A stretch of DNA of 64,000 nucleotides. It comes from Alphaproteobacteria bacterium. Lineage in GTDB: Bacteria; Pseudomonadota; Alphaproteobacteria; CAAHEQ01; UBA3637. The position numbers and the translations under genes were made by a program. The notes under the pieces were generated by a model. The model saw only the letters and a list, made by a program, of their open reading frames with translations, did no database searches and was not told the origin of the DNA. Positions 9,933 to 59,082 of the stretch are shown here, piece by piece. Location of the stretch: the NCBI GenBank assembly GCA_045605805.1, contig JAZUQR010000027.1, positions 64,001-128,000 on the forward strand, read 5' to 3'. Positions within the stretch are counted from its first letter, which is position 1; each line of letters begins with the position of its first letter.

Positions 9933-10047
9933 GCCTTTTCTGTTCATAAAAAAATCTTTTTGTTTTGTGTCATTTTTTACTGGTTTTTCCCCAAAAAAAA
10001 TGCTATACTATAACTGTTGAGGGAAAACAGAAAGAAACGGAGAAAAA

Positions 10048-10557
10048 ATGTCAAAAGACTATACATTCAACCCCGGTGATTTTGTTGTTTATCCTGCGCA
10101 TGGTGTGGGCCAAGTGACAGAACGTCAAACAACCACGGTTGCCGGACAAAATCTAGATTTAATTGCCGTGCATTTTACAAAAGATAAAATGACCATGAAG
10201 ATTCCATCAACCCAAGCCTTGGAAAAAGGTTTAAGGCAAATCGCAACCCCTGTGATGATGGAAAGCGTGGAAAAAGTTTTAAGTAAAAAGACAAAAGCAA
10301 AACGTGTTCAATGGAGCAAACGATCGGCCGAATATATCACAAAAATCGGCACAGGCGATCCAATTGCTTTGGCCGAAGTGATTCGGGATTTATATAAAGA
10401 CCCTGCTGTGGCCTCCCAAACATACAGCGAACGGCAACTTTACGAAAAGGCCATGAATCGTTTGGCACCCGAATATGCCGTTATTCTTGGCATTGCAGAA
10501 ACAGAAGCACAAGCCAAAATTGAAAGCTGTCTGCGTGGATCTGATTCGGCGGAATAA
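10048..10557 (+). CDS. carD: CarD/CdnL family RNA polymerase-binding regulator
   Basis: FNPGDFVVYPAHGVG, WSKR, KIGTGDP, EVIRDLY, YSERQLYE. Confidence 0.92.
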   Translation: MSKDYTFNPGDFVVYPAHGVGQVTERQTTTVAGQNLDLIAVHFTKDKMTMKIPSTQALEKGLRQIATPVMMESVEKVLSKKTKAKRVQWSKRSAEYITKIGTGDPIALAEVIRDLYKDPAVASQTYSERQLYEKAMNRLAPEYAVILGIAETEAQAKIESCLRGSDSAE

Positions 10558-10603
10558 ATAATAAACAAGATAAAAAAACAAAAATGGGGAATATGATTGG
10601 AAA

Positions 10604-11080
10604 CTATTCAATCACTTCCCCATCATATAATCCCCACATAAAACGACGAGGAAACCATCCTTCTAATTGTTCGTTTTCATAATTAAACTGCAACAAGCAA
10701 TAATCTCCCGCCGGGCAAGAATGAACTTTTGCCACTACACCTGGCTGAACATAAGCAATCACACGAGAAGAAACAGACGGCCCTGCCAAAAGTTTATCTT
10801 CGGATTGAATCACCACATAGCGCACCTCTTGCAACGCCCGTTGATGCATCCAACCAATGGTTCCATCAGCCTCACGCACTTGAAGCCAATGTTCAAAGCT
10901 GTCAATCACCTCAAAGGGATAATATCTTTCTTGATACACCCATTTAATGGGAAAGCGTTCAGCTGGCCCCGCCCGTAAATTGACTTTGTCATACCGCAAA
11001 GAACGAAAGCCTTGCTCTTGAGCATAAGCACACACCACAAAAAACATCATCAATAAACACAAAAACCTAAAAATCTTCAT
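10604..11080 (-). CDS. Secreted tandem bacterial SH3 (SH3_4-type) domain protein
   Basis: Signal peptide; FRSLRYDKVNLRAGP..FPIKWVY, W..VREADGTIGWMH; second SH3 ending EGWFPRRFMWG. Confidence 0.8.
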   Translation of the reverse strand: MKIFRFLCLLMMFFVVCAYAQEQGFRSLRYDKVNLRAGPAERFPIKWVYQERYYPFEVIDSFEHWLQVREADGTIGWMHQRALQEVRYVVIQSEDKLLAGPSVSSRVIAYVQPGVVAKVHSCPAGDYCLLQFNYENEQLEGWFPRRFMWGLYDGEVIE

Positions 11081-11636
11081 GTTTTATTTCCCCTGAGAAA
11101 CGGTGGCGAATGCTTTTTTGCGGGCGTCGGAACGAAAACATTTTATCTTGGCTTTCTTCCTGTATTTTTTCATGCAAACCCGCATTTTCCAAAATCACTT
11201 TTTGCTCATCCGTCACAGCCCCACGCTCCTGTCCATCCGAAAAGTCTTTCCAAGCCACCTGAACAGCAGGCATGACCACCAATTGAGCAATTCTATCCCC
11301 CCGATGTAATACAACCAAATGAGAAGAAGTATTTTGCACCAATACCGCCAATGGCCCTCTATCAGCCGGATGAACAAGCTGAGGCGCATCCAAAACAACC
11401 AGTCCTTCTTTTTGAGCCATATCAAAAGTACTGACCACAAAACCGCAATAACCTTCCGGCACACCAACAGCAAAACCAACCGGCACCAACGCCCGATCCC
11501 CTGGTTCCAAACGCAAAGCCGAAGGAATAGCAGCTTGAAGATTCAATCCCATATGATAAGGCGAATGATAACTGGGCAACGGCAAATCGTTTCCATCGGC
11601 AGTACGCATAATAGATAAACTTAAAACCTTGGTCAT
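11067..11636 (-). CDS. dUTPase-like protein with degenerate catalytic motifs
   Basis: LPLPSY, LEPGDRALVPVG and GDRIAQL retained; motifs 1, 2, 3 and 5 altered (GLNL, STFDMA, PQLVHPADRG, no GFGSTG). Confidence 0.75.
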   Translation of the reverse strand: MTKVLSLSIMRTADGNDLPLPSYHSPYHMGLNLQAAIPSALRLEPGDRALVPVGFAVGVPEGYCGFVVSTFDMAQKEGLVVLDAPQLVHPADRGPLAVLVQNTSSHLVVLHRGDRIAQLVVMPAVQVAWKDFSDGQERGAVTDEQKVILENAGLHEKIQEESQDKMFSFRRPQKSIRHRFSGEIKHEDF

Positions 11637-11644
11637 ACCTCTCC

Positions 11645-12628
11645 CTATGTAATTGCTGTAATTGCCCGAATATTGCCATCCCGATTGATTTGCACCACAC
11701 GCAGTTTTTCTTTCATTTCTTTATGAGTCTTTTCCTGATCCAAAGCCGGATTGGAATGCATAATCCGAGAAATAAAAGCCTGATAAGCAGCCTCAGGATT
11801 TTCGGCGTGAATCGTGGCAAAACAATTTTCATGCCCCGAGTTCATCAACTCCCAAATAGCCCCGGCATTTGTGGTAGAAATCTCTCCTCCAATAATGGCA
11901 TCAGGCGTAAAACGCACAACCAAATCCACCACTTGTTTATAATCAAACTTGTTGTTTGCTTCTGTACGAGCCAACACCAAATGCACTCGGTTGGGTTGAT
12001 GCACAATCAATTCACGGGTATCCTCAATCGTAATAATACGCTTATGTTCATCCAAAATCTTAAGCATATTATTCAAAAAAGTCGTTTTACCGGTAGCCGT
12101 TCCCCCACTGATAAGAATATGATCCCCCCGTTTAATAGAAAGCAGTAAACGGTCATAAGGATCATCCGGATCTTCCACATTTTTTAACCGATTTACTTGA
12201 CGCAACCGCCCGCCTTGAACAAGGCCAAATTGATCCAATTTAATATCCACATCCGGTTTATAAACACGAATATCCAAGGCAACGCCACCTTCCAAATCAT
12301 CATCATCATATTTCACATTCTGGCCAATAATGCCTGCAAAACGATGGCCCCCTGGAAGTTCAGTATAAACAGCCGGCACGCCCACTTCTTCTCCAAAGGG
12401 TTTGTCTTGACTGTTGGAAATGATATACATCAAATTACGCAAATACTCCCGTGTCAATTTTGGGTCTTCGTAATAATGCCACGGATGAGCATGTCTGCCC
12501 CGTAAACGCAACCAAATCCCCCCTGGGTTATTCACAGCAACATCTTCCACATTATCCTGTGAATACCAATAAGCCAAAGGTTTCAATACCATTTCTAAAA
12601 TGCGTTGCGATTCCGGCCGTTTTCCCAT
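11645..12628 (-). CDS. virB11: Type IV secretion ATPase VirB11
   Basis: DVAVNNPG, Walker A GGTATGKTT, ITIEDTREL, RFTPDAIIGGEI, SGH..CFATIHA; follows virB10. Confidence 0.9.
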   Translation of the reverse strand: MGKRPESQRILEMVLKPLAYWYSQDNVEDVAVNNPGGIWLRLRGRHAHPWHYYEDPKLTREYLRNLMYIISNSQDKPFGEEVGVPAVYTELPGGHRFAGIIGQNVKYDDDDLEGGVALDIRVYKPDVDIKLDQFGLVQGGRLRQVNRLKNVEDPDDPYDRLLLSIKRGDHILISGGTATGKTTFLNNMLKILDEHKRIITIEDTRELIVHQPNRVHLVLARTEANNKFDYKQVVDLVVRFTPDAIIGGEISTTNAGAIWELMNSGHENCFATIHAENPEAAYQAFISRIMHSNPALDQEKTHKEMKEKLRVVQINRDGNIRAITAIT

Positions 12629-12638
12629 AATTTACTCC

Positions 12639-15600
12639 TTAAAAATAACGATCATCGTCTTGATAAATAGGAGGAGAAACAGGATCAACCTTTCTGTCTT
12701 CTGTATCCTCTGGTACATAGATTTTGTCTGATTCCTCTTGCTCTTCCTCTTGTTCCTCCGTTTCTTCTTCATCAGATTTTGTTCTTTTTTCCACCCAAGA
12801 ATCATTCACAGAAGGCAATTGCGCAGCACTTGGATCACCAAGTCCTTGATCTTCCAAATCTTCCACATCATCATCCACCGAACGCAACCATAAATCCGTA
12901 TTGGAAAAAGCGGTTAAACGAGTTCCTGATGGCACATACAAAATGTTTGGAACTTCACCAGACATTTCCATAAGTTGGCCCCAAATATCCTTAAAATTAT
13001 CAATAAACATTTTGCGTATTTGAGACCCAGGAGTTTCAGATGTCGTTGTGCCATTACTAGCCGTTGAAGAAGAAGCAATCACAGATTTTTCGTTCAGTTC
13101 AGTCAATTTCAAAACAATAGCTTCACCAATACTGCTGCCCACAGGCAACAAAAACTTCCGCATCAACTGCATATCCAAATAAGCGGCCACACCCCCTCGT
13201 CCTTGTGCATCGCCCGAAACGGCTTCAAACTTAAAGGCAGCCCCATCAGGACGAATCAACCGATTCCAAGAAATATCAATTTTGGCGGCTTGATCTGTGC
13301 CAAACTCCATGGCTGAACCAGACAATGAACCAATCAACCGACTGCCGGCAGGAATCAAAATATTGCGTCCTTCTTCGGCATAAATATGTCTTTCCACAAT
13401 GGCCGTCACAGGGGCAGTTGGATATCGGGTATCAATAGAACGCACTAATACCGCCGGAATAGCCTTATCAGCCAACAACACTCTGGACATATCCACAGAC
13501 CATGTAGAAACATTTTTATCCACATCCACACTTGACCAATCCTTGTCTTTTTTGCCTTTGGCTTTGGCTTGAATGGCTTTGCCAGGAAGAATCGTTGGAA
13601 CAGACCCCATTTTTTCCTTCATTTTAAGGCGTCTCTTTTTTTGTAAATCCAAAAATTGCTCTTTAACTTCATCCGGAATCACTATTTCTTTTGGGGGTGG
13701 TGGCGGCTCTCGGTATTCAGGACTTGTTTTATCAGTCTCCCAAATATACGGACGCAGAGTAGAAGGATCCCACGCCCCAACAACCTTACCCTCACCATTC
13801 ACAAGCATTCCTGTGTCTGGATCAATTTCATATGTCTTGCCCCCCCAAGTGATTTTGCGACCACCCGCTCTTTCACCAATAGACGCCAGCCCACAACGTC
13901 TTAAATCCATGCCAAGCCCCCGGAACCATCCATAATCCGTTCCATCCGGATTATAAACCTTTCCATCTGTTGTGGAAGTTAAAATAATATCACCGGCCTC
14001 ATCACGGATATTTCCGTTGGCTTCCAAAAGCCCCATCTTTTCTTCGCCTGGAATCTTAAACAATTCACAATTAAATAATCTGGCCACCGGCTTGTTGGTT
14101 AAATCATATAGCAACACATAGTCATTCTCATCTCCAAACCCTGGCAATGTGTTTCCATACTTATCAGTCATTGTGCCTGTTGTTTGGTTATAGTATCCCA
14201 TAGAAGTACCGTCTCCAGTTTTAACCTCACCGTCTATGGATATTGTATAATCTAAAGTACCACCCGGATTAAAAATCAATCTATCTTCGTTGGAAGCCAT
14301 CCAACCAATTTTGTTACCGTTAAAATCATAGGCGTCATCATTATCCAAACCACCAATCGTTCCTTGAGGTTTACCATCTGTCCCCACAACACGGCCCATA
14401 GCGTCCACACGCCCAAACATCACTTTGTCGTTGTTAAACACAGGACCACGAGCTCTTAACCGCCCAATTGGTTCACCATTGGCATCACGCAACAATTTAT
14501 CACGTCCCACACAACCAACCACAACGCCATCCGGATTCACCACAGTTGAATCGGGTAAAGTGCGCCCCAAATATACCCCTTTTTCGGAAGTAATCGGCCC
14601 ATAACGCACAATAAAGCCCAACTCTTTACCCATAGGATCGGTAGCCACACCTTTTGGCTGCATCCGGCCAATCACATTGCCTTGACCATCCACAACCGTT
14701 CCATCATAGGCAGTTTGTCCAATAACCTTGCAAGAATTATCCACAACCAAAGTTTCTGGAAGAACACCACCCACTTCTTGCAACTTATCTTTCAAAGTTT
14801 GTGCCTCTTCAAAAGTCAAAGGAAGAGCCGCACCATTGCTGGCAAGTGCAGCAACTTCTTCGCCCGCTTCATTCACAACTTTTCCCAAACCATTCACAAA
14901 TCCCAACACAGAATTAGACAAACTCAACACAGGCAAAAACGGAACAATCTGCCCTTCCAACGGCCGTTCCTTGCCCAAAATAGTGGCATCATCCAAAATC
15001 TGATATTTCACAGAACCAGAAGCATCAATCAAATGACCATCCACGGTTGTGCGCCCTAAAACAGAAGGATTATATCCAACCGGCACCCCTTGAACAACCA
15101 AATGCCCCACATAAGGCATGGTATTATAAACAGCCGGCTCCGACACACCCGCCACACTGCCATCCGGCAACACACGCCCTTTGAAGTTCTTATCAAACAT
15201 CACCGAACCATCAGCCGTCACAACCCCAACTTTTTGGGCATAGTCATCCACAACAAACCCTGTTTTCAAAGGTCCGCCTGCCCAAATTGTTTCAGGTGTT
15301 AAAACCGAAGAAAACGCCATACGAGAACCGATTTTCTGACCATTCACACCCCACACCTGCGCACCAAAACCGGATTCTCCAATTTTTTTGCCAGCTTTGT
15401 CAATAATCGTTTCAGCATTAAAAATACCACCAATCAAAGAGCCACCTTGTTCAACAAACCCATTACCAAAAGAAGTACCAATAACTTTGCCCCCCAACCA
15501 AACAGCACCTGTCCAATCCTCCATACCAAGACTCTTTAAGTTATGTGAATTGGCAAATCCAATCTGAGCCGAAGTCCCAACAACCATTTTATCAGAATCC

Positions 15601-18600
15601 ACAATAAAATCGTTCATCATCAATTCCCCCACGGAACGATTTGTTTGTGGTTTATAAACCAGACTGTCCCGACCAACAACACCCATCAAAGAGGAAGAAG
15701 TTAAACCTCTGGCAAATGGGTTTGTACTATGAATACGCCCCACAACAGACCCTTTGTTCATCACATAATCTGGGGCTGCCACAGTGCCGATTTGACTGCC
15801 GGAAGCCGACACAACAGAACCGGTTTCTGTCATAATACCACACATTTTTTCATCTTCATTCAAAGAATATGCTCCAAACGGCACATAGCCGCCCAAAATT
15901 GTGCCTGCAATGTCATTCACACGATTGTTAAAGGCAACCCGCCCAACAACAGCGTTCATATTCATAACAGAGCCATTAAAGCCGGTCCATCCCATAACTT
16001 CCCCGGTGGCATTCAGGGCCAAACCATTCAAAAGAGGCCGCCCAATTAAAGAAGAATCCGCATTGGTTAAATAAGGCATCTGATTGTATGTCATACCCAT
16101 AAAACCGTTTCCATTATAAATCCCGCCATCAGGGGCCACACGGCCAATAAATAAACCATTTTTATCAACAACCGTTGCATTTTTCACCACAGTACCAACA
16201 ATTTTACCGGCAGCATCAAACACAAAACCATCCACACCCAATTGCCCAACAGTTTTGCCTTCACCATTTTCAACATCACCGTTAAAGCGTACAAATCCCA
16301 TAAAATGGCCATCCAAATCAACAACCATACCCAAAGGAAGAGCCGTACCAACCAAGCGACCATCTACACCCAAAACAGTGCCAAAACCAGACACAGCCCC
16401 AACATATGAAGCATTTTTGTCAAATACAGAAGCCTGATATTGCATACTGTTTTCTGTGGAAGCATCCGGCACAACAAAACCAATCACACCGGCCGAAGAA
16501 ACAACCACAGAGGTTTTATTCCACAAGGCGCCAACCACACGATTATCCGGAGTCACCGCAATTTCATTCGGTAACAAAGAGGCCACCTTAGTCCCATCCA
16601 TCATCACATCCCCTTTGATGGAAACCATACCAACATAATCACCAGAAGAAGATAACACAACCCCTTCACCCAAAACACCACCCATCAATTCATTATTGGA
16701 ATTATACACAGCACCATCTGCCAACACTTTTCCAATCACTTGACCAGAAGCATTGACAACCTGCCCTCGGGCATCAAACCGTCCCAACACAGCTCCTTTG
16801 AAATCCGCAAAATAAGAATCCTTTGGAAAAGCTCGTCCCACAATGCGTGTGGCTGTCATATCTAACACAGTACCATCCGGCATTAAACGCCCCAAGGGTT
16901 TGTTATCCACAGAAAGAGCTTGCCCCATAAAGGCATTATAAGTTCCAATAAGCCGACCATTCATATCAAAAATAAAACTATCCGGATGAACCAAACCAAC
17001 AATTTGGCGGGCCTTATTCAATACCCAACCATTCAAGGTTTGAGTTCCAACTTCGTTCTGTTGCGTATCCATACATTTGGAAGCCTTACAAGTCCAACCG
17101 GTGAATAGACCAACATCATTCAACACAGCCCCATTATAAGTACGAGTATCACCTTGCGAACTTGTGCCGTTTGAATTGACACAACCAATAACCTTGCCAT
17201 TCTTATCAATAATCTGGCCATCATAGCGCACCCGACCGGAAAAATCACCTTTTGGTGAAAACAGCGCCCCTGTTGGTGTTAAAACCCCCAAAGATTGTCC
17301 ATTTGCAGCCAGCGGTTCTTTTTCAAGATTGATACAGCCAATGACATTTCCTTTTTGATCAATCACCTGCCCCGACAAAGACAAAAGCCCCATCAAACGA
17401 CATCCTTCTGCCAAAACCGTCCCACGGGGAACAACAACACCCATCACCACAGAAGAGTCATTTAGTGTATATCCGTCCGAACGCACCTTTCCAATGGGTT
17501 GCAACGCAATTGTCACAACCGAACCATCTGGATAAACACTGCCCAAAACATTACAAGAATTACCCACCACACGACCTTTTTGTAAAACACCACCCAACAC
17601 TTGTTTGTCTGTATAAACACTGCCATCTGGTGCAACATTCCCCATAAGACTTCCCTTGCCATCCACAGCTTTCCCTTCGGAATTGACAAAGCCCAACACA
17701 TTTCCATCCATATCCACAACCAAGCTGTTGCCAATGACAGCCCCAATTGTGTTCATATTCGCATCTACCACATCACCATTGGGCATCACACGCCCCACAA
17801 CTTGACCATAAACATCTTTAACCGATCCATTCAAAGAAACTTCACCAAACGAACGACCGCCCAAACCAACAGCGATACCTTGCTTAACCACAGAACCAAC
17901 CAAAACGCCATTAGTATTCACAATAAAACCATTTTGTTGCAAAAAACCTTGAACCTTTTGTTCCGAATCAATCACAGCACCGGTTGGTAAAACAATACCC
18001 AAAACATTGCCTGACAAATCCATGGCCATTCCCCAAGAACGCAACACCCCAATTTGAATGCCAGCATCATCAAAAACAGTTTGATCCACCCGAGGCGTAC
18101 CAATTTTTTTGCCGGCCCCATCCACAACTTTCAATTCATTAGTCGCCTTATCAACCGTCAACTTACCCACAACAGCCCCTTTTGAATTGATAACCGAAAC
18201 CAAAGGAATGGCCGCCCCAAGCACATTAAAATCCGAATCCACAACGGTATTATCCAATAATAAACGCCCTACAAGCTTACCCTCTTTGTCTTCCACCGTC
18301 CTTGAATCGGTCACAAAACCCAAAAACTCATTTTTCAAATTTAACGCCACAAGTCTTGGTTCTGTCACACCCAGAACTTCCCCCTCGGGATTTTTAACAA
18401 TCCCTTCCTCAGGCGGTTCAGCCCCCTCTGGCAACTCTACTTCTGTACCATCAGGCAACACATAAATCGGTCTTGGCTTTTTTTCGGGTTTATTTTCAAC
18501 ACCACAATTTTCACAACAAACACATTCTTTGGAATCAATAGCTGTTCCCTTTAAGGTAATCTGACTCCGTTCATCCTTCAAAACACGGGAATTGTCTTCA

Positions 18601-19100
18601 TGCCACACAATCGTCAAAGTATTTTGAATACTTTGCACTTTAACAGGTGTCCAAGAAACTTTCAATACACATTCTTCATCCACATCCAATTCGGTACGCT
18701 CCATACAATCGCCCGATAAAACAAAGCCATGTTCAGAAATATCCGCCAAATAGCTTTCCACAAAAACCAACGGGCCGTTTTCTGCCCTTAAAAGAACCGT
18801 AGCTTCAGCCGTAGCCCCCAACACAACATCATCAAATGCAACTTCCTGAGGAGAAACAACCAGCTGCGTTCCATCCACAGAAAAATCGGGCAATTTATCA
18901 TCATCAGAAACATCATCCCCGAAGGTATTTATCACATTAGCAGAAACAGGCTCAGTTTGAATCAAATCAACAGGTTGTTCTTTCGGAGCGGAACACAGTA
19001 CCACAAAAAACAAAATCACAACCAACAGTCCAAACAAAGATAAAATCCATGTGGTTCTGCGTTTTGATTGTGCGGATAAACTTTCGTGACTTGTTGCCAT
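12639..19100 (-). CDS. virB10: Giant VirB10/TrbI protein (2153 aa): TM anchor, Ig-like domain, ~1500 aa of Gly/Val beta-hairpin repeats, VirB10 domain, acidic tail
   Basis: C-terminal IPAVLVRSIDT...LIPAGSRLIG...WNRLIRPDG...DAQGRGG...PNILYVPSGT; single N-terminal TM; lies between virB9 and virB11. Confidence 0.88.
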   Translation of the reverse strand: MATSHESLSAQSKRRTTWILSLFGLLVVILFFVVLCSAPKEQPVDLIQTEPVSANVINTFGDDVSDDDKLPDFSVDGTQLVVSPQEVAFDDVVLGATAEATVLLRAENGPLVFVESYLADISEHGFVLSGDCMERTELDVDEECVLKVSWTPVKVQSIQNTLTIVWHEDNSRVLKDERSQITLKGTAIDSKECVCCENCGVENKPEKKPRPIYVLPDGTEVELPEGAEPPEEGIVKNPEGEVLGVTEPRLVALNLKNEFLGFVTDSRTVEDKEGKLVGRLLLDNTVVDSDFNVLGAAIPLVSVINSKGAVVGKLTVDKATNELKVVDGAGKKIGTPRVDQTVFDDAGIQIGVLRSWGMAMDLSGNVLGIVLPTGAVIDSEQKVQGFLQQNGFIVNTNGVLVGSVVKQGIAVGLGGRSFGEVSLNGSVKDVYGQVVGRVMPNGDVVDANMNTIGAVIGNSLVVDMDGNVLGFVNSEGKAVDGKGSLMGNVAPDGSVYTDKQVLGGVLQKGRVVGNSCNVLGSVYPDGSVVTIALQPIGKVRSDGYTLNDSSVVMGVVVPRGTVLAEGCRLMGLLSLSGQVIDQKGNVIGCINLEKEPLAANGQSLGVLTPTGALFSPKGDFSGRVRYDGQIIDKNGKVIGCVNSNGTSSQGDTRTYNGAVLNDVGLFTGWTCKASKCMDTQQNEVGTQTLNGWVLNKARQIVGLVHPDSFIFDMNGRLIGTYNAFMGQALSVDNKPLGRLMPDGTVLDMTATRIVGRAFPKDSYFADFKGAVLGRFDARGQVVNASGQVIGKVLADGAVYNSNNELMGGVLGEGVVLSSSGDYVGMVSIKGDVMMDGTKVASLLPNEIAVTPDNRVVGALWNKTSVVVSSAGVIGFVVPDASTENSMQYQASVFDKNASYVGAVSGFGTVLGVDGRLVGTALPLGMVVDLDGHFMGFVRFNGDVENGEGKTVGQLGVDGFVFDAAGKIVGTVVKNATVVDKNGLFIGRVAPDGGIYNGNGFMGMTYNQMPYLTNADSSLIGRPLLNGLALNATGEVMGWTGFNGSVMNMNAVVGRVAFNNRVNDIAGTILGGYVPFGAYSLNEDEKMCGIMTETGSVVSASGSQIGTVAAPDYVMNKGSVVGRIHSTNPFARGLTSSSLMGVVGRDSLVYKPQTNRSVGELMMNDFIVDSDKMVVGTSAQIGFANSHNLKSLGMEDWTGAVWLGGKVIGTSFGNGFVEQGGSLIGGIFNAETIIDKAGKKIGESGFGAQVWGVNGQKIGSRMAFSSVLTPETIWAGGPLKTGFVVDDYAQKVGVVTADGSVMFDKNFKGRVLPDGSVAGVSEPAVYNTMPYVGHLVVQGVPVGYNPSVLGRTTVDGHLIDASGSVKYQILDDATILGKERPLEGQIVPFLPVLSLSNSVLGFVNGLGKVVNEAGEEVAALASNGAALPLTFEEAQTLKDKLQEVGGVLPETLVVDNSCKVIGQTAYDGTVVDGQGNVIGRMQPKGVATDPMGKELGFIVRYGPITSEKGVYLGRTLPDSTVVNPDGVVVGCVGRDKLLRDANGEPIGRLRARGPVFNNDKVMFGRVDAMGRVVGTDGKPQGTIGGLDNDDAYDFNGNKIGWMASNEDRLIFNPGGTLDYTISIDGEVKTGDGTSMGYYNQTTGTMTDKYGNTLPGFGDENDYVLLYDLTNKPVARLFNCELFKIPGEEKMGLLEANGNIRDEAGDIILTSTTDGKVYNPDGTDYGWFRGLGMDLRRCGLASIGERAGGRKITWGGKTYEIDPDTGMLVNGEGKVVGAWDPSTLRPYIWETDKTSPEYREPPPPPKEIVIPDEVKEQFLDLQKKRRLKMKEKMGSVPTILPGKAIQAKAKGKKDKDWSSVDVDKNVSTWSVDMSRVLLADKAIPAVLVRSIDTRYPTAPVTAIVERHIYAEEGRNILIPAGSRLIGSLSGSAMEFGTDQAAKIDISWNRLIRPDGAAFKFEAVSGDAQGRGGVAAYLDMQLMRKFLLPVGSSIGEAIVLKLTELNEKSVIASSSTASNGTTTSETPGSQIRKMFIDNFKDIWGQLMEMSGEVPNILYVPSGTRLTAFSNTDLWLRSVDDDVEDLEDQGLGDPSAAQLPSVNDSWVEKRTKSDEEETEEQEEEQEESDKIYVPEDTEDRKVDPVSPPIYQDDDRYF

Positions 19101-19110
19101 TGATAAATCC

Positions 19111-20769
19111 TTATTTCACCCTAATCACCGAACAAGAATAACCTCTTTTTCCTAATTTACGACACAGAGCATCGGCCATTTCTGCATTATCCAACGAACC
19201 AACACGCAACCGGAAAGTATCGGCCACGCCACCATTTGCCGCTGTATCCACAGAATAATATGGAACATATCCGCCAAGCAAATCAGCATTACTGGCATAA
19301 ATTTGTTCCCATAATTTTTCCAATTCACTAATTTCCGGTGAAGTTCCAAACTCAACCGAAATGGTTTCCTCCGGCACCACAGACAAATCAGAAACATCAT
19401 ATCCCACAGCAGGCACAGAAACAGGCGCACTGCCCCCAAAAACAGGCTCAGTGTTCACCACACCACAAGCTGTCGTTGAACCATTACAATAAGGATTGAT
19501 AGCACCTGCATAAGGATTCAATCCCCCTGTTTCGGTGGCATATCCTAAAGTCATCGCACCCGCATTCTGAGCCGGCACATAAGGATTTTGACCATGCAAT
19601 ACCGAACCACCCTTCACCGTCACTTCTGAATTCGGTACATCAGATGCCTGTACAGGCAATTGATTATGATACGCATAAGGCTGTTCGGCATAACCCGAAT
19701 AGTCGGTATATTCCAAACCGGCAGCCGGATCTCGTCTTAATTTAATACAAATCACCTTTTGTCCATTGCGCAATACCAAATCACCAATAGCTTCCACAAC
19801 AATCAATCGGCTGTTTGCGCCCCGAGTTCTAAACCCAACAGGAACTTCTGTTCCTTGAACAAGCAGGCTGACCACAGGCCGTTGTGTCATAGTTAAAGCC
19901 TTTGGCCCCAAATCAATATAAGTAAAGATATTATCCCGCCACACATTGTCCGGAGCAATATCCACATCATCCGGATTCGGCAAGAACATATCCAAATCAA
20001 ACTTTAATTGTTCAGGATCCATCGGAACCGTATTCCCCCATTCGCTTGCCTTATTTTGCGCAACCGAGTTGGCCTTTGTACTGACCGCAGTAGCCACACC
20101 AGAATGATTGATAGGCATAGAAGCCATTGTGGAAACCAACGATTCATTTTGCAACTGCCCCCCATTTGCAACGGGCGTCCATCTTGATCCCACTAACACA
20201 TCCACAACCGTTTGTGTAATTTTATCCGTATTAAAAGTTTCACTTCTTAAATAAAAAGCATAGCGATTACCGGAATGCCCAAACACAATCATATTACCAT
20301 CCACACCCAAAGAAGAAGGATCGGCATAAATCATCACAGAATTGGCCGACACAACCTCTCCATTAAAAGCATCAGGTGAACCAATATGCACTTTTTCAAT
20401 CAATTCCCACGAAGGCAAATTGATTAAAGTCATCATACCCTCCCGCACACGAATCGGCAAAACCGTATCTGGCGTCCAATTATACTTTGAATACCCTGGT
20501 TTAGATTGACCTGCCCCCATATGTGCCAAAGGATTATTCCACGCCTTTTGTTGCATCCCCAAAGCATGAATATAATCCAAATTCACATCATTATATTCAC
20601 CACTGGAAGCAGCAATAGCATCAGCAATTTGTTCTGATTGAGTATCTGTCGGCAAATGTACCTCAGCTTTAACAGAATTTGAAATCAGGCCCAAAATCCC
20701 TGTCAAAACTGGCAAAACTCCCCTAAAAAATACATTTTTATTCACCGGTTCCTCCTTATATCTAGACAT
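19111..20769 (-). CDS. virB9: VirB9/TrbG outer-membrane core protein fused to a C-terminal SPOR domain
   Basis: Signal peptide; IRVREGMMTLINLP, GNMIVF..GNRYAFYLRS, APDNVWRDNIFTYID, LVLRNGQKVICI; C-terminal FRLRVGSL..A.ALCRKL..RGYSC. Confidence 0.85.
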   Translation of the reverse strand: MSRYKEEPVNKNVFFRGVLPVLTGILGLISNSVKAEVHLPTDTQSEQIADAIAASSGEYNDVNLDYIHALGMQQKAWNNPLAHMGAGQSKPGYSKYNWTPDTVLPIRVREGMMTLINLPSWELIEKVHIGSPDAFNGEVVSANSVMIYADPSSLGVDGNMIVFGHSGNRYAFYLRSETFNTDKITQTVVDVLVGSRWTPVANGGQLQNESLVSTMASMPINHSGVATAVSTKANSVAQNKASEWGNTVPMDPEQLKFDLDMFLPNPDDVDIAPDNVWRDNIFTYIDLGPKALTMTQRPVVSLLVQGTEVPVGFRTRGANSRLIVVEAIGDLVLRNGQKVICIKLRRDPAAGLEYTDYSGYAEQPYAYHNQLPVQASDVPNSEVTVKGGSVLHGQNPYVPAQNAGAMTLGYATETGGLNPYAGAINPYCNGSTTACGVVNTEPVFGGSAPVSVPAVGYDVSDLSVVPEETISVEFGTSPEISELEKLWEQIYASNADLLGGYVPYYSVDTAANGGVADTFRLRVGSLDNAEMADALCRKLGKRGYSCSVIRVK

Positions 20770-20821: not shown

Positions 20822-21526
20822 TTATTTATCTTTTTTTTCCAGAGAAAATCTATCCACTACAAAACCAAGCGGATTTTTTAAGCGATCAGCCCATGTCAAA
20901 TTTTTACGAGTTGGACGAAAAGAAGTTTCCAAGGTAGCAACCACTTCAAGCTCTTTGGGTTCAGCAGATGTCCGATCTGTATCAGTGAACTTTAATACAG
21001 CCGTCCATCGATCCGAACCATTTCTTCCCCCAGTGTGGGTTCTGCCCAAACTTGAAATCCGAACATTTCGGATAAAGTTGTCTTCAAAGGCCAAAGTCTG
21101 CCCCGGTTTAGATTCCTTTTCCACAAAATCATCATATACAGATTGAGAACTCATCCAAAAAACAACACCGGTAGACCCCCACCGTTCCTCCAACTCTTTC
21201 AAATCAGAACCAATACCGTAACGAGCCAACAGATATTGCCGCACCAACGATTCACTCAAATCCTTGGAATCCAATGTTTCTGCATCAGGGCGTTTAATGG
21301 CAATAATTTGCTGATCTTTATTCTGAACTTCCAAATAAAAAGGTTGCACACGCAACACAGGCGTCACATTAGCCAAAGCAATCAACAGAATAAGGTCACA
21401 CACAAGGGCCAAAACCATCATCACAACAAACGCCCGAGCCATCCACAAATAACGTTCTTCCTGCAACATGGCATGTGGTTCACGAACAGCTCTTTCTTCT
21501 GATTGAATAGGTGTATTTTCGGACAT
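20822..21526 (-). CDS. virB8: VirB8-family protein (second copy, B8b-like)
   Basis: Single N-terminal TM, VQPFYL, LVRQYLLARY, C-terminal KNPLGFVV. Confidence 0.85.
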   Translation of the reverse strand: MSENTPIQSEERAVREPHAMLQEERYLWMARAFVVMMVLALVCDLILLIALANVTPVLRVQPFYLEVQNKDQQIIAIKRPDAETLDSKDLSESLVRQYLLARYGIGSDLKELEERWGSTGVVFWMSSQSVYDDFVEKESKPGQTLAFEDNFIRNVRISSLGRTHTGGRNGSDRWTAVLKFTDTDRTSAEPKELEVVATLETSFRPTRKNLTWADRLKNPLGFVVDRFSLEKKDK

Positions 21527-21784: not shown

Positions 21785-22402
21785 TCACTTGCGTTCAGAT
21801 TCATCTACCCGAATAACCACAAAACCGTTTGGATTTGCAAAACGCTTTGCCAGCACAGCCCGAGACGGCCAATAATTAAACTCAACAACAAGTCGTTTTT
21901 GTTTTTTTTGCCACTGTAAAAAATTATCAAAGGTATATAAATCATAATCAACAGAATAATATCCAGATTCTCTTGTAACCGATAAAATATCTATGGTTTG
22001 GGGCGGCATATTGGCTATTTTTTCAAAAGAAGGATATTCTTTCAAAAAGGCCTGATAGCTGGCAGGCGAAGAAAGATAAGATAAAAGTCCATAAGCCCCC
22101 CACCTTCGTTCCATTTCTGCCACATCTGGGATACGAGTATAACGCAAGTCTAAATAATAACGCAATAACATTTCATCCGTTTGTGTGCGATTCACACCTT
22201 CCAGCGGATATATTTGCGCTAAATCCTCGTTAAAAACATTAAAAACACGATCCTTATCTTGAAAGACCTGCGCCACAACCTGTATTTGCAAAACGGCCTG
22301 AAAAACGGTCACAGTAAGGAAAAAAGTAAAAATCCACAAAACCCAACATACAAGCATAAACAAACGAGTTCTGTACCACGGACTTTGTTCCTTAAAGGAC
22401 AT
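21785..22402 (-). CDS. virB8: VirB8-family protein (first copy, B8a-like, more divergent)
   Basis: N-terminal TM, LLRYYLDLRY, ERRWG shared with the other copy, C-terminal ANPNGFVV. Confidence 0.75.
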   Translation of the reverse strand: MSFKEQSPWYRTRLFMLVCWVLWIFTFFLTVTVFQAVLQIQVVAQVFQDKDRVFNVFNEDLAQIYPLEGVNRTQTDEMLLRYYLDLRYTRIPDVAEMERRWGAYGLLSYLSSPASYQAFLKEYPSFEKIANMPPQTIDILSVTRESGYYSVDYDLYTFDNFLQWQKKQKRLVVEFNYWPSRAVLAKRFANPNGFVVIRVDESERK

Positions 22403-22413
22403 AGCAATTCTCC

Positions 22414-23580
22414 CTACAAAGGCTTGCAAAAATCAAAATTACCTTGAAGGCTTTGTGCCTGTTGTACACTTTGATTGACCATTTTTTCCGACTCTGTTTG
22501 CAGGGCAGAAATCATCTTGCGATGCGAAGTATTTTCAGCCATTTTCTGTTCTACCTCAAAAGCATTGGTTTCGGTCAAGAAAACAATACCGTTTTCATCT
22601 TTTTCCATCGCATCAATCAACACTTGTTGTCGTGCCTGTGGCGAATACTGGTCAAAACGCTGCATTTCGGCAAAAGCCTCAGGGAATTGAGATTCAACTG
22701 CTGACAACACCTGTTGTTTGGTTTTGGAACGGGTATTGCGACGAGCCGCAGCCTTTGGATACTTTTGATCTTGCAAATTTAATTTTTCAACATACGCCTT
22801 TGCCTCTTCCAAATAGACAGATTTTAGGCTCTGTAAAGATTTGCGCACTTGACGCACCTCTGACACCTTTTTGGGATCAAACGCAGGCATCTGAATACCC
22901 ACCTTGGATAATTTAGCCACAAAATCAGAAATCATTTTTTTATAAGTTTTTTCAAAATCTGATTGCGCTATCCCCATATTGTGTTTTGAATCATCTGCCA
23001 GAACAAGTTCTTCCAAACCAAAACCAACGAGATTTTCTTTAAGATCTTCCGGTACCTTCCGCTTTTTCTTATCAACAGGTTCCGCCCCCCATTTTTTGTT
23101 ATTTTCAAGGGTGTCTGTAATCAAAGCAACCTCAATATTCTTTTTGCGTTCCAACAAAGATTGGCGATCCAATGCAGAAGCGGGAAAAATGCTGTCAGGC
23201 GCATAAACCCTGTTGGATTGCATATTTTTGGTCTGTTCTTTATAAGCCGCACTAACCTTTTTCAAAACCTCTGATGCATTCTTAAACCGACCAAAGCGTT
23301 TTTCATTACATTCAAAAATCTCATCAAAATAGCTTTGAGCCTCTTTAACATTTTTCAACAGCTGATCATGTTGTTCGGCAAGCGTTTGCAAATCCGGCAA
23401 TTGAGTCATCAAATTATGCACATCCAAAGCCTTGTATAACGAGTCATTATGCTCAGGCAGAACCTTGGTTAAAGTCCGTGTTTCAATTTTAATCACAGGA
23501 GGAGCCCCAAAGCGAAGTGCCTCAGCACTGGTGCTAATCAAAACAAAAGAACAAACACAAATCAATAAAGTCTTTTTCAT
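22414..23580 (-). CDS. Secreted/periplasmic coiled-coil hypothetical protein in the T4SS cluster
   Basis: Signal peptide (SAEA), K/E/Q-rich helical sequence, tight spacing to neighbours. Confidence 0.7.
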   Translation of the reverse strand: MKKTLLICVCSFVLISTSAEALRFGAPPVIKIETRTLTKVLPEHNDSLYKALDVHNLMTQLPDLQTLAEQHDQLLKNVKEAQSYFDEIFECNEKRFGRFKNASEVLKKVSAAYKEQTKNMQSNRVYAPDSIFPASALDRQSLLERKKNIEVALITDTLENNKKWGAEPVDKKKRKVPEDLKENLVGFGLEELVLADDSKHNMGIAQSDFEKTYKKMISDFVAKLSKVGIQMPAFDPKKVSEVRQVRKSLQSLKSVYLEEAKAYVEKLNLQDQKYPKAAARRNTRSKTKQQVLSAVESQFPEAFAEMQRFDQYSPQARQQVLIDAMEKDENGIVFLTETNAFEVEQKMAENTSHRKMISALQTESEKMVNQSVQQAQSLQGNFDFCKPL

Positions 23581-23583
23581 TTT

Positions 23584-24642
23584 TTATTGCCCTCCTCCTG
23601 CAGAAAATTCAGGTCTGTTATCATTTCCAACAATTTCAAGTTCTTTTTTCAATGGCTTGAAATCAAGTTCCAAAGTTTCGGCCCGCACTTTTGTTCTGAC
23701 GGCTAAAACATTCATTTTCAAAAGCATTAAAGAATCATATAAAGCCCGTCTGGTTGCCAAAGTGTTCAACGCTTGGTTTTTGGAATTATATTGTGCCTGT
23801 ATCTTGGCATCCATCTCTGCCAAAGAAGATAACTGACGTTTCAATTCCATTGCCGAAGCCATAGCCTTAATACTGCGCTGTTGCGCCCGATAACGAATTG
23901 CCCGTTGTTCTTTGGCCACATTTTGTAAAGAACGTTGATCTTCCAAAAGTTCATTTCTGCGATATTCCATCAATTCACGAGGCGAAGCAGACGAAGCATC
24001 CTGCAAGTTTTGATACATATCTTTATCAAAAGACACTGCCTGCAAACGAGTTGGATCAATACCCAATTTATCCATAATCGCCACAATCAAATTTCTATCA
24101 GCCGGCCCAATCCATTTATCAGTCACATGGCCTTGAACCCCCGCAAAATCGGCCGTGATTTTGGTTGAATCACGCATAAACTGGTTCACCGCCGCATGTC
24201 CCAATTGAGAAACGCCAGATAACCCATCCAAAGTAATGCCCAACCCAACCCACGCAGATTCAGCATGAATAGGTGCTTGCGCTGTAGTTGTAAGGGTCTG
24301 ACTCATTTTCCAAGAAGGAAGATACTGTTTCAGCTGTTGAATCGGCCAGCCCACTGCCATACCAGTTAATGGTGTAGACAGTGCCATATCCACCATAGCC
24401 GCTGAATCACCAGCATCGCTAGAATAATCTGCACCACCAGCCGTATGTTCCACTGGAGTGGCTTCAGGATTTGATTCAGGTAAATCCTTTGAAGTATCAA
24501 AGGCCTGCGCTCGTGAAGTATCCGCTAGTGATTCTCTAGTTTCTCTACCCACTAGGAATTCTGTAATTCCAGCAGTCACCGGCATCACCAAAACACCGTT
24601 TAGCAAAGAAATCGCACAAACACCTAATAATAATTTTTTCAT
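23584..24642 (-). CDS. Secreted hypothetical protein, T4SS-associated paralog array member 5
   Basis: Signal peptide MKKLLLGVC..VTA; helical C-terminus; 4-nt overlap with the upstream gene. Confidence 0.7.
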   Translation of the reverse strand: MKKLLLGVCAISLLNGVLVMPVTAGITEFLVGRETRESLADTSRAQAFDTSKDLPESNPEATPVEHTAGGADYSSDAGDSAAMVDMALSTPLTGMAVGWPIQQLKQYLPSWKMSQTLTTTAQAPIHAESAWVGLGITLDGLSGVSQLGHAAVNQFMRDSTKITADFAGVQGHVTDKWIGPADRNLIVAIMDKLGIDPTRLQAVSFDKDMYQNLQDASSASPRELMEYRRNELLEDQRSLQNVAKEQRAIRYRAQQRSIKAMASAMELKRQLSSLAEMDAKIQAQYNSKNQALNTLATRRALYDSLMLLKMNVLAVRTKVRAETLELDFKPLKKELEIVGNDNRPEFSAGGGQ

Positions 24643-25487
24643 GCACCTTCTCCTTCTTCATCATCGGCCACATCACCTGCACCTGCCTCACCTGCACCGG
24701 CATTATCGGCCTCATCTGTTGCCGCCACATCTTCTTCTGTCATCAACAAAATGGGTTGAACACTTAAAAACTTGGCCGCATCCAGTTCCATCAATTGTAT
24801 CTGCATCACAATATCCGCCATCAAGGCCCGATTGATTGCCTTCCATGTCTGGTCCGTTCCGGAAGTCGCCCCAATAGAGCCATCCCCGTTGATATCAGAA
24901 GAAACCACATTCATATCCTCAATCAACTTTTCTTGAACGGTATAAGCCGTTTTAACATATTCCTTGGCAATTTTGGTTAAATATTTTTCTCGTTCTTTAC
25001 GAATAGCCTCCTGTTTTTCTTCTGTGGCATCGGCATTATTTTCCAAAAAGAACATCTCCTTCACAACTTGCTCCATATCGGCCGAATCAGTCAGTTTTTT
25101 ATTCAAAGGCGAATAAGGCGTTTTAATTTTATCGGTTAAATAGGTATTATGTAAATAGGTATAAGTATCCAAGGGCATAGTGCCGGAATCTGGTTTGCCT
25201 GTCCCTGGTTCAGACACATACGAAGTGGTACCATCCACCAAAGCCCCAACATCGGCCTGTGTCACATTTAACCTCGCCCCCATTTCGGGCTCTTCCCCCA
25301 AGGCCAGCAAATTTAGAAGAGCCGATCCCGTGTTACGCACAGAGTCAGTAATTGATACAGGATCTGATACTTTGTCAGGCACCACCTTCATCGTCTTAGG
25401 AGGAAGGTCCGCCCCCCACACATCCGAAACATATACGGAAGATAAACATCCCAAAGCAATCAAAAAACGAAACATAAAACTTTTCAT
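24639..25487 (-). CDS. Secreted hypothetical protein, array member 4, with acidic tail
   Basis: Signal peptide; ATEEKQEAIRKEREKYL...MELDAAKFL; 4-nt overlaps at both ends. Confidence 0.7.
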   Translation of the reverse strand: MKSFMFRFLIALGCLSSVYVSDVWGADLPPKTMKVVPDKVSDPVSITDSVRNTGSALLNLLALGEEPEMGARLNVTQADVGALVDGTTSYVSEPGTGKPDSGTMPLDTYTYLHNTYLTDKIKTPYSPLNKKLTDSADMEQVVKEMFFLENNADATEEKQEAIRKEREKYLTKIAKEYVKTAYTVQEKLIEDMNVVSSDINGDGSIGATSGTDQTWKAINRALMADIVMQIQLMELDAAKFLSVQPILLMTEEDVAATDEADNAGAGEAGAGDVADDEEGEGA

Positions 25488-26344
25488 TCTGTATCCTCCT
25501 TCAATTCAGAAACATCCACACGATCAATACCGCTGAAAATGATATTTCGATACGATTGCGCCCGTAAATCATCGGCATATAAAAATAACATATCCACCGC
25601 AGCCGAAGAAGCATAAACCGATAAATCGCCCAAACCGGCTCCAACGAATTCCGCCAAAGTCTCTTTGGCAGCCACACTGTTCACCAATTTTTCCAAATTA
25701 TCATAATTGGCATCCACATCCTGTAAATAAGAATCCGCCATACTGGATGCGGCCGTGGATGAAGCCACCAAAACCTCGTTTTGCCGTGCCTGAGCACATT
25801 CAGAAGGTTCACACTCTTCACCGGTTCCCACCGAACAGACGCAATCTTGGTTCACAGCCAAATCATCCGATACAAACATATACGAAGCCACATTCTCACG
25901 CACCCGATCAAAAGTATCGCCTTTTTTACCCATTTTATCCTTGGCATCTTCCCCCAAAACCAAAGTACCATCTTCTTCACTTTGTGTAATAATGGCAATT
26001 GTGCTGTCTGGGATAGACATAGCCAATTCTTCTGCCTTCATAATTTCTTCTTGTGCAGATTCGGGCGTTTTGGTATCACATCCTGAATTGCCGGTTGCCG
26101 ACACGCCACAATGGCCTTGCTCACGATACATCCCAATGTTTGTTTGCAACTTTTCTAACCCATTTGTCACATCATAATGAATTGTTTCCTGCTTACGATT
26201 CCATTCCCGTGCCATATAACCAAACGTCGTTTCCATAGCAGTCTGATAAAGACAACCAATAGATGGACACCAACTGGCTGCATAACAAGGGGCAGCACCA
26301 AGCAACCCTATACATCCCACCGAAACAAATAAAAGTTTTCTCAT
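25484..26344 (-). CDS. Secreted Cys-containing hypothetical protein, array member 3
   Basis: SD plus ATG 26344, signal peptide ending CYA, several Cys pairs, helical C-terminus. Confidence 0.7.
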   Translation of the reverse strand: MRKLLFVSVGCIGLLGAAPCYAASWCPSIGCLYQTAMETTFGYMAREWNRKQETIHYDVTNGLEKLQTNIGMYREQGHCGVSATGNSGCDTKTPESAQEEIMKAEELAMSIPDSTIAIITQSEEDGTLVLGEDAKDKMGKKGDTFDRVRENVASYMFVSDDLAVNQDCVCSVGTGEECEPSECAQARQNEVLVASSTAASSMADSYLQDVDANYDNLEKLVNSVAAKETLAEFVGAGLGDLSVYASSAAVDMLFLYADDLRAQSYRNIIFSGIDRVDVSELKEDTE

Positions 26345-26360
26345 AATCGTTCCCCCTTTG

Positions 26361-58857: not shown

Positions 58858-59023
58858 GTTGTTCTCCTTCTTTTGCATAAGAATATAGTCACTCTTTTGA
58901 TAAAACGCAAGACACCCCCATTTTTTTAAGGACTCCTCTCTTGTAATTATTTGACAAAACAGCCATGCGCACAATTTGCGAATAATAAAAAGCCAAAAAC
59001 ATTTTGAAAAAACAACTTTTTCC

Positions 59024-59052
59024 TTGCAAAAAACACAAAAAAAAGCTATAAT
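59024..59052 (+). promoter_or_regulatory. sigma70 promoter for the orphan-mipZ-pgm transcript
   Basis: TTGCAA-N17-TATAAT. Confidence 0.6.
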
Positions 59053-59082
59053 ATATCCCACTGTTTTGCGAAAGGAATTAAA

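Follow-up and report, generated by a model that had tools for sequence, protein, structure and literature searches.

VirB10 is the subunit of type IV secretion systems (T4SSs) that spans from the inner to the outer membrane. In the systems of R388, pKM101 and Cag, its N-terminus lies in the inner membrane and its TrbI domain forms, in about 14 copies, the inner wall of the outer-membrane core ring. Expanded versions of this subunit are already known, and the use of their repeat regions in Cag and Dot/Icm is unsettled. Here we describe another one, encoded by a virB10 homologue in a 64,000-nucleotide stretch of DNA from an uncultured gut Alphaproteobacterium (GenBank assembly GCA_045605805.1, contig JAZUQR010000027.1, positions 64,001 to 128,000; hereafter the window, whose own numbering is used below). 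The product of this gene, P0001, is about five times the size of a usual VirB10. On balance, we lean towards the view that it serves as VirB10 in a T4SS that is encoded on the chromosome and inherited vertically, with most of its length made up of beta-hairpin repeats.

CagY of Helicobacter pylori is a VirB10 homologue of ~1900 amino acids (aa) whose cysteine-bearing repeat region is now placed in the periplasm and has been modelled as 14-mer rings (10.1101/2025.06.20.660796; here and below, cited statements are those of the portion of each source that was available). DotG (IcmE) of the Legionella Dot/Icm system has a variable, repeat-rich middle before TrbI, for which a periplasmic 'collar' has been proposed (10.1101/2023.03.22.533729; PMC6761968). 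In Rickettsia typhi, an islet of rvh genes contains rvhB8-II followed by rvhB7-rvhB8-I-rvhB9-II-rvhB10-rvhB11 (PMC4676284). As for the repeats, a 2023 description of beta-flowers presents them as closed barrels built from 4, 5 or 6 hairpin petals, with [DNEQ]xxG tips and without a known function (PMC10584680). Our literature search found no paper linking beta-flower or DUF3659 repeats to VirB10 and none describing this alphaproteobacterial T4SS, and the databases label these proteins generically.

Domain composition and VirB10 identity

An initial annotation of the window had described an open reading frame (ORF) of 2153 aa, encoding an N-terminal transmembrane helix, an immunoglobulin (Ig)-like domain, a CVCCENC cluster, a long run of repeats, a poly-proline linker, a TrbI domain and an acidic tail. 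The ORF list and the translation, with one ORF on the minus strand, agree with this description, and each of these elements was recovered (Table 1). The assignment to VirB10, for which the match of the C-terminal domain to TrbI profiles is the critical point, is borne out: Pfam TrbI (PF03743) matches residues 1875-2072 with 86.4 bits (cutoff 35), as expected for the C-terminal barrel of this family. The NCBIfam VirB10 equivalog-domain model scores 78.6 against a cutoff of 220, and the ComB10 model also stays below its cutoff. Sequence searches of the PDB with the TrbI domain retrieved ComB10 (2bhv, E 4.4e-11) and 7o3j, and Foldseek matched its model with probability 1.0 to ComB10, Xanthomonas VirB10, TrwE, CagY and DotG (2bhv, 6gyb, 7o3j, 6odi, 9ngw). 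Two long helices within this domain (residues 1971-2007 and 2024-2049; local 921-957 and 974-999) were modelled with a block pLDDT (predicted local distance difference test) of just 31-67. At the other end, KRR precedes a hydrophobic segment (14-45) and AlphaFold2 predicts a helix at 8-36, which corresponds to the bitopic topology of VirB10/TrbI proteins, with a short cytoplasmic N-terminus and one transmembrane helix. The TrbI score, the Foldseek matches, the transmembrane helix and the conserved operon, in which the gene sits between virB9 and virB11 as is usual in the family, together identify P0001 as a VirB10. The acidic tail varies in sequence across homologues, and its last residue is Phe in the family consensus; this terminal Phe presumably resembles the C-terminal signal of outer-membrane proteins.

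The acidic linker that follows the transmembrane helix (37-78) is only 9-26% identical to that of the orthologues. The Ig-like domain behind it is matched by Pfam ASH at residues 80-165 (E 3.8e-6 with the whole protein; a scan limited to residues 40-230 gives E 9.6e-8 and 32.6 bits, with the cutoff at 27). AlphaFold2 models it as an eight-strand sandwich with a pLDDT of ~93, and Foldseek matches it with a probability of 1.0 (6fvi, 2ys4 and 1m1s); the matches to the PapD-like domains of CEP192 and HYDIN have this probability and a template-modelling score TMt of 0.60-0.64. Two cysteines of this domain (C132 and C144) and two of the cluster (C193 and C196) are invariant in all 36 aligned homologues; the cluster region (191-203) was modelled with a pLDDT below 50. 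Domains akin to this one also occur in two giant tandem-ASH proteins, P0241 (4358 aa) and P0243 (2404 aa), where the ASH-type domain is repeated up to 34 times.

The large repeat region lies, as in other expanded VirB10s, between the transmembrane helix and the TrbI domain. A relative of classical size, P0188 (579 aa), matches P0001 in two stretches, at residues 3-169 (E 5e-6; transmembrane helix and Ig-like domain) and at residues 1855-2073 (43% identity); nothing significant was found between residues 169 and 1855. This pattern indicates that the giant form is a VirB10 of the type transmembrane helix-Ig-TrbI into which ~1650 aa were inserted. Other relatives of ~520-570 aa also combine an ASH-clan Ig domain with TrbI in their precomputed Pfam annotations. 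The ancestor would then have consisted of the transmembrane helix, the Ig-like domain, a short linker and TrbI, and the ~1650 aa would have been inserted between the latter two domains. Seemingly intermediate relatives (560-1100 aa) were set aside as fragments, which start in mid-repeat or have no TrbI.

Repeat hierarchy and predicted fold of the array

The insert is dominated by a 17-aa periodicity. BLOSUM autocorrelation over residues 231-1760, compared with 200 shuffles, gives z 16.9 at lag 17, 14.9 at lag 34 and 13.3 at lag 51, and falls further to 8.5 at lag 68 and 6.3 at lag 85. Because this decay is monotonic, a 51-aa hierarchy is not demonstrable by plain autocorrelation, and tests on unit profiles were needed. 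An iterated position-specific scoring matrix (PSSM) located 69 units in ~87 slots between residues 239 and 1720, with irregular spacers that appear as steps of 22-50 residues; it was used instead of a 17-aa hidden Markov model (HMM), which proved too insensitive in hmmsearch (27 weak domains). The resulting consensus is [DKN]-G-x-V-[VIL]-G-x-V-L-P-D-G-x-V-V-D-x. In unit profiles built from 36 homologues, similarity rises at slot lags 3, 6 and 9 (z 1.63, 2.86 and 3.31), and the period-3 statistic reaches z 3.78 (permutation p 0.0003; block-shuffle z 4.55). Periods of 2, 4, 5 and 7 units are not significant in the same profiles (4: z -1.5; 5: z -0.5), and period 6 (z 2.26) is a harmonic of period 3. 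An expectation-maximization (EM) fit of periodic unit types points the same way: three types (K=3) gain 21242 bits, against ~2900 with the order shuffled, and the gain per added profile exceeds that of K=2, 4, 5 and 6, bearing in mind that the input (926 runs and 8557 units from 183 homologues) consists of orthologues that are not independent, so that the gains overstate significance. Judged from these profiles, the 51-aa, three-unit super-period is real.

The initial annotation had proposed 17-aa units grouped in threes and had estimated about 30 modules; the starts of the modules that it named lie at residues 402, 453, 503 and 554, with lengths of 51, 50 and 51 aa. These proposals hold up well: its consensus agrees with ours in another frame, the EM phase places one unit type at 397, 448, 498, 549 and 600, corresponding to the proposed module starts, and 1482 aa divided by 51 make ~29 three-hairpin modules. 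The comparison that it suggested with DUF3659-type repeats was apt as well, since PF12396, PF21784 and PF21785 all match the family. In P0001, both beta-flower models exceed their gathering cutoffs (Bflower_2, 214.9 bits against 38, E 1.9e-64, in seven stretches; Bflower, 44.8 bits against 25, E 1.8e-11), and 140-aa pieces match the Pfam beta-flower models along residues 255-1110 and 1440-1580; pieces of the array also match DUF3659. In the unit consensus, the [DNEQ]xxG tip motif results from D/N at position 16 together with the G that the following unit has at position 2, and D-G is present at positions 11-12. No tandem repeats were found at the DNA level in the repeat region, where dispersed matches reach just 60-91% over 20-62 nucleotides, and no other ORF of the window has more than one unit-like match. 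No solved structure related to the repeats was retrieved by a sequence search of the PDB or by a profile of the 51-aa module, whose best match, at E 0.026, was an NHL propeller.

Conserved cysteine pairs of the array lie exactly 73 residues apart and co-occur (516/589, 567/640, 1457/1530 and, in most homologues, 415/488), and 73 is the commonest Cys-Cys separation among 183 homologues (588 times). In mean-field direct-coupling analysis (DCA) of 2089 six-unit windows (effective number of sequences, Meff, 863), by far the strongest coupling (z 19) is between position 2 of one unit and position 7 of the fourth unit after it (n to n+4). Cysteine at position 2 is confined to unit type 2 (20%) and cysteine at position 7 to type 0, four units on (19.6%). 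The conserved cysteine pairs would accordingly be read as disulfides from unit n to unit n+4. The remaining couplings are antiparallel, both within the unit (9-15, 6-14) and to the next one (16-3', 13-4', 14-6', 13-7'), and therefore describe a beta-meander. Pairs 516/589 and 567/640 are interleaved, so that a ring of its own for each pair is excluded; they would imply that any unit n relates to unit n+4 in this same way.

AlphaFold2 was run on residues 1-1100 and 1051-2153 (1103 aa) with 73-row alignments. The first model has a mean pLDDT of 88.7 and a predicted TM-score (pTM) of 0.77, with 96 strands and no helix of at least 4 residues between 211 and 1090, where block pLDDT is mostly 90-97. 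The second has a mean pLDDT of 78.0 and a pTM of 0.64; the array part reaches 86-96 and the hairpins extend to ~1730. No periodic dips in pLDDT are seen in the array of either model, and a pTM this high over 1100 residues seems unlike independent beads on a string. The best Foldseek matches of the array are the YD shells of teneurins and the cores of Rhs proteins of type VI secretion systems (T6SSs) (E to 1e-14, probability to 0.99), followed by weaker matches to the large clostridial toxins TcdA, TcdB and TcsL (probability 0.13-0.38). Since the TM-scores are 0.03-0.12, the likeness to all these entries is one of local architecture only, and a wide cocoon of the Rhs type was ruled out by the n to n+4 contact. 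From the period of 3 rather than 4 or 5, the n to n+4 cysteines, the antiparallel couplings, the AlphaFold2 confidence and the resemblance to continuous hairpin assemblies, we infer that the array is a continuous, narrow, disulfide-stapled hairpin solenoid with about three hairpins per turn, and not a string of closed beta-flowers. Three hairpins per turn are presumably also found in the solenoids of CROPs (combined repetitive oligopeptides) and choline-binding proteins.

The array could alternatively consist of ~17 separate closed beta-flower barrels of 4-5 petals, strung into a flexible or extensible tether between the membranes. The E-values of the five-fold Bflower_2 and four-fold Bflower models and the matches of the 140-aa pieces speak for this arrangement, and the tip motif of the unit consensus is the one held to define the fold (PMC10584680). 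Yet neither a 4- nor a 5-unit periodicity accompanies the period of three, the cysteine pairs interleave, the pTM is high without periodic dips in confidence, the Foldseek matches listed for the array include no small closed barrel, and the Pfam matches slide along the profile instead of starting at its position 1. Separate barrels are, in view of this, an unlikely architecture for the array.

Equally improbable, although compatible with a collar, is that the array is a solenoid binding glycans or peptidoglycan, like cell-wall-binding or CROP repeats, that anchors or spaces the machine. The weak matches to TcdA, TcdB and TcsL, which carry CROP hairpin repeats, would fit, as CROP short repeats form saccharide-binding beta-solenoids that pack into extended rigid rods (PMC4885049), and the neighbouring VirB9 homologue ends in a SPOR-like segment. 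On the other hand, P0001 has no Pfam match to cell-wall-binding repeats, the SPOR score lies under its cutoff, the aromatic content of the array is just 6.6% and no binding site was identified.

Relatives, split genes and operon

A word-indexed protein search (7999 candidates scored, length range 1184-3768 aa) retrieved 311 proteins at E <=1e-3, nearly all of 2100-2400 aa and with the same Pfam set. Where a source names them, they come from alphaproteobacterial metagenome-assembled genomes and are called TrbI/VirB10 family protein, DUF3659 domain-containing protein or hypothetical protein. Among candidate stretches from one genome per GTDB species, 321 of 369 encode a relative, and the best 80 of these 321 were compared as loci. 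The 80 belong to uncultured Alphaproteobacteria, save for a few bins labelled otherwise, and their record titles name rumen and gut; we take their GTDB order to be RF32. As the closest is 55% identical, the species of the window is not among them. Among plasmid-borne VirB10s, the best match reaches 36.9% identity in the TrbI domain, and none of the 769 matching plasmid records attains 60%. Some homologues match the Pfam RHS_repeat family, and P0001 has no such match at E up to 0.01.

Over their full length, from M1 to the final residue, the homologues align colinearly. Identity to the orthologues is 36-54% in the array and 49-70% in TrbI, and the array contains few unit-sized indels, which indicates that the repeats are orthologous position by position and that the expansion is old. 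The initial annotation had called the repeats highly diverged and the expansion old and had advised an orthologue comparison; the absence of DNA-level tandem repeats agrees with it too. Length is nearly fixed in the family. Repeat-number variation through recombination, a trait of CagY and DotG, was not found in this comparison across species with one genome each.

Sixty-seven of the 80 loci have an uninterrupted ORF of 2085-2666 aa, four are cut by contig ends and nine (L056, L064-L066, L069, L070, L073, L075 and L078) have two adjacent genes instead, lying at ~10000-19000 in each locus. Gene A encodes the transmembrane helix, the Ig domain and repeats, with a conserved end, ...DLDKKVSGYVLQEVAKNRRN; its length is 1099-1574 aa in the seven loci with a complete copy. 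Gene B encodes its own signal peptide, the motif ...QEITAIDFNG..., repeats and TrbI (1459-2366 aa). Combined, both genes amount to ~2600-3300 aa or more, longer than the fused form. A tree of TrbI domains rooted on classical VirB10s was built from 90 of 92 candidate rows (two were dropped for lack of a TrbI match of at least 170 aa; eight of the nine split loci are included). The split forms make up one clade (SH-aLRT, Shimodaira-Hasegawa-like approximate likelihood ratio test, 95) nested among the fused forms, and the split is therefore derived. P0197, tried as a classical VirB10, is probably a fragment and sits beside the split clade in the tree. Gene B begins with sequence that is most similar to the fused array from ~residue 359 onwards, but the fission point is not mappable on the fused protein, since the junction pieces match many repeats; the sequences suggest that a partial duplication is as likely an origin as simple fission. 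As far as its predicted signals go, the split clade exports both halves and can do without a covalent connection between the inner and outer membranes.

With the inner-membrane anchor on one side and the outer-membrane core domain on the other, the insert should be periplasmic, a location that is supported by the signal peptide carried by the second half in the split clade. A surface-exposed array acting as an adhesin or variable antigen, a display proposed earlier for CagY and suggested for DotG (PMC6761968), is very unlikely: it disagrees with this topology and with the fixed length and orthology of the repeats, there are no DNA repeats to drive recombination, and the repeat region of CagY itself is now placed in the periplasm (10.1101/2025.06.20.660796). 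An artefact, in which mis-assembly or a sequencing error joined two genes into the long ORF, can be practically dismissed despite the nine loci with two adjacent genes, because 67 independent assemblies contain the single ORF, the alignment is colinear end to end and the split forms are one nested clade with conserved ends and a signal peptide of their own.

The virB10 gene is part of an operon with the order virB8-like, virB7-like, virB8, virB9, virB10 and virB11 (Table 1), which is conserved among the 80 loci to the extent given by the counts in the table; the missing cases include loci cut at contig ends. Gaps of 10 nucleotides separate virB10 from the virB9 stop and from the virB11 start, with Shine-Dalgarno-like sequences at both junctions. 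The VirB9 homologue is about twice the usual size, and its end motif, ...GRNGVFCSVVRTQ, is kept in related loci; the Pfam SPOR match at this end (E 5.3e-4, 20.7 bits) falls just below the cutoff of 21. The 87-codon ORF has no Pfam or NCBIfam match and is called VirB7-like because, read from an internal Met (residue 30), it would encode a lipoprotein with the lipobox VLAAC.

Table 1. Coordinates of the parts of P0001 and of the virB genes in the window (AF2, AlphaFold2; residue numbers refer to P0001)
Feature	Position	Strand	Basis
virB10 homologue P0001, 2153 aa, stop codon included	12639..19100	-	ORF list, translation
Residues 1-36: short basic cytoplasmic tail and one transmembrane helix	18993..19100	-	hydropathy, AF2
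Residues 37-78: acidic linker, low-confidence model	18867..18992	-	net charge -8; pLDDT <50 at 40-74
Residues 79-188: Ig-like ASH/PapD-like beta-sandwich	18537..18866	-	Pfam ASH, AF2, Foldseek
Residues 189-238: CVCCENC (193-199), then Pro/Glu-rich lead-in to first hairpins	18387..18536	-	sequence
Residues 239-1720: ~87 slots of 17-aa beta-hairpin units (69 detected), 51-aa three-unit modules	13941..18386	-	PSSM, Pfam, AF2
Residues 515-650: segment with two interleaved conserved Cys pairs, 516/589 and 567/640	17151..17558	-	alignment A2
Residues 1721-1790: last irregular beta elements after array	13731..13940	-	AF2 pLDDT 48-77 (local 672-736)
Residues 1791-1860: PPPPP (1799-1803) and basic helix ~1810-1833 (AF2 local 760-783)	13521..13730	-	sequence, charge
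Residues 1861-2075: TrbI/VirB10 C-terminal domain, two long inserted helices (antenna-like, low confidence)	12876..13520	-	Pfam TrbI, Foldseek
Residues 2076-2153: acidic tail ending in Phe	12642..12875	-	net charge -23; pLDDT <50
virB11 ATPase, next downstream	11645..12628	-	NCBIfam VirB11 E 4.6e-44; beside virB10 in 79/80 related loci
virB9 homologue, 552 aa, SPOR-like C-terminus	19111..20769	-	Pfam CagX 61.6 bits; 74/80 loci
virB8 homologue	20822..21526	-	Pfam VirB8 61.2 bits; 69/80 loci
VirB7-like small ORF, 87 codons	21541..21804	-	sequence; 67/80 loci
Second, divergent virB8-like gene	21785..22429	-	Pfam VirB8 E 0.0023, below cutoff; one transmembrane segment; 63/80 loci

Residues 1721-1790, between the array and the poly-proline stretch, have no Pfam match. 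Upstream of the virB genes, six consecutive ORFs (22414-31065, minus strand; 388, 352, 282, 303, 374 and 1203 aa) have no Pfam or NCBIfam match at the cut-offs used, except for a sub-threshold Pfam match in the 352-aa ORF. Five of them have a predicted N-terminal signal-like hydrophobic segment, none has multiple transmembrane segments, and they are detectable in just 6-15 of the 80 related loci; accessory components or substrates that evolve quickly are possible identities. Chromosomal housekeeping genes such as dnaA, recR, lepA, infC and dut make up the remainder of the window. Elsewhere in it, a 1077-aa ORF (41069-44302, plus strand) carries, in one frame, an LptF match (residues 3-350, above the NCBIfam cutoff) and an LptD match (387-1057). 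It looks like the inner-membrane lipopolysaccharide (LPS) permease fused to the outer-membrane LPS insertase, unless it is an artefact of read-through or of start calling. The HtpG match of a 685-aa ORF (57034-59091, minus strand) starts at residue 84, and a 447-aa ORF (55637-56980, minus strand) has a weak ThyX match restricted to its first 221 residues.

Proposed role and comparison with known systems

The reading that we moderately favor is that of an expanded VirB10 whose insert is a continuous, stapled hairpin solenoid forming a periplasmic collar or cage. The hairpins would run on as one tightly wound solenoid of about three per turn, with no separate small barrels; disulfides between units n and n+4 would hold it together locally, and the irregular spacers would divide it into segments. 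If VirB10 forms a ring of ~14 copies, as in other T4SSs, the rods could build a large, rigid periplasmic collar or cage round the channel, making the connection of the inner-membrane half with the outer-membrane half larger and stiffer, in analogy to the 'collar' attributed to the repeat regions of DotG and CagY. The initial annotation had envisaged a possibly extendable machine, but the confident continuous model and the conserved inter-unit cysteine pairs argue for a rigid rather than an elastic structure.

Several observations weigh against this reading. The three-unit signal, strong in residues 239-1100, is only weak in 1100-1440 and has disappeared in 1440-1720, and in-phase DCA (775 nine-unit windows, Meff 333) shows no clear inter-turn contacts beyond the cysteine pair. 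The best Pfam models of the units are closed four- and five-fold beta-flowers, and the Foldseek matches to Rhs, teneurin and clostridial-toxin entries, besides their low TM-scores, have a root-mean-square deviation of ~30 A. As regards the machine, virB4, virD4, virB2 and virB6 are all absent from the 64-kb window in an NCBIfam scan, and ~14 x 160 kDa of extra protein would have to fit in the periplasm.

An array invariant in length, unlike those of CagY and DotG, suits a structural ruler better than an antigenic or regulatory rheostat. In a bolder and rather doubtful version of the collar, fourteen stapled solenoids of ~29 turns, with three hairpins per turn, would fill the periplasm as a cage that grips peptidoglycan with the help of the SPOR-like end of VirB9, and would act as the fixed-length ruler of an unusually large T4SS kept since its origin by a whole order of gut Alphaproteobacteria. 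If this were true, the two-gene version would show that the ruler can assemble from two non-covalent halves.

This is a third, independent expansion of VirB10, made with a different repeat. The confident AlphaFold2 model and the fixed length make it more tractable structurally than CagY or DotG, and its natural split form separates the inner-membrane half from the outer-membrane half. Beta-flower and DUF3659 repeats gain their first clear cellular context, and the family points to a conserved, unstudied secretion machine in common uncultured bacteria of gut and rumen.

Compared with the classical VirB10/TrbI proteins (TrwE of R388, ComB10, Xanthomonas VirB10), P0001 shares the transmembrane helix, the proline-rich stretch, the TrbI barrel, in which inserted helices are modelled at low confidence, and the position between virB9 and virB11. 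It differs from their ~400-600 aa in the insert and in the Ig-like domain after the transmembrane helix. In gene order alone, the locus is like the Rickettsiales rvh system, which also has a duplicated virB8 with a virB7 or virB7-like gene in between, followed by virB9-virB10-virB11, and whose T4SS genes are likewise chromosomal and scattered. However, virB11 is here followed by dut and not by virD4, and the available portion of the rvh report describes no giant RvhB10 (PMC4676284).

With regard to the repeats, the likeness to beta-flowers and DUF3659 (PF21784, PF21785, PF12396) lies in HMM scores far above the cutoffs and in the tip motif, but the described beta-flowers are single closed barrels of ~100 aa, whereas P0001 has ~87 running units with a three-unit period. 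The Rhs/YD shells of teneurins and T6SS Rhs effectors and the CROP rods are also long continuous assemblies of beta-hairpins. Yet their overall shape differs, and P0001 has no Rhs plug, protease or toxin domain; lacking RHS_repeat matches and given its n to n+4 coupling and TM-scores of at most 0.12, it does not belong among the Rhs/YD-repeat shells.

The closest counterparts are the expanded VirB10s. CagY also places a large cysteine-bearing repeat region before its VirB10 domain, and the C-terminal domains match (Foldseek 6odi, 6x6s, 8cb2). The repeat regions share no sequence family, however: the A/B modules of CagY recombine and vary between strains, whereas the 17-aa hairpins of P0001 have a fixed length and no DNA-level repeats. 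The repeats of DotG are of 10-aa or pentapeptide type, in proteins of 1000 to >1500 aa, according to the available portions of its descriptions, and its size varies even within species. Relative to DotG, P0001 is built on another kind of repeat, present in threefold amount, and its size is stable.

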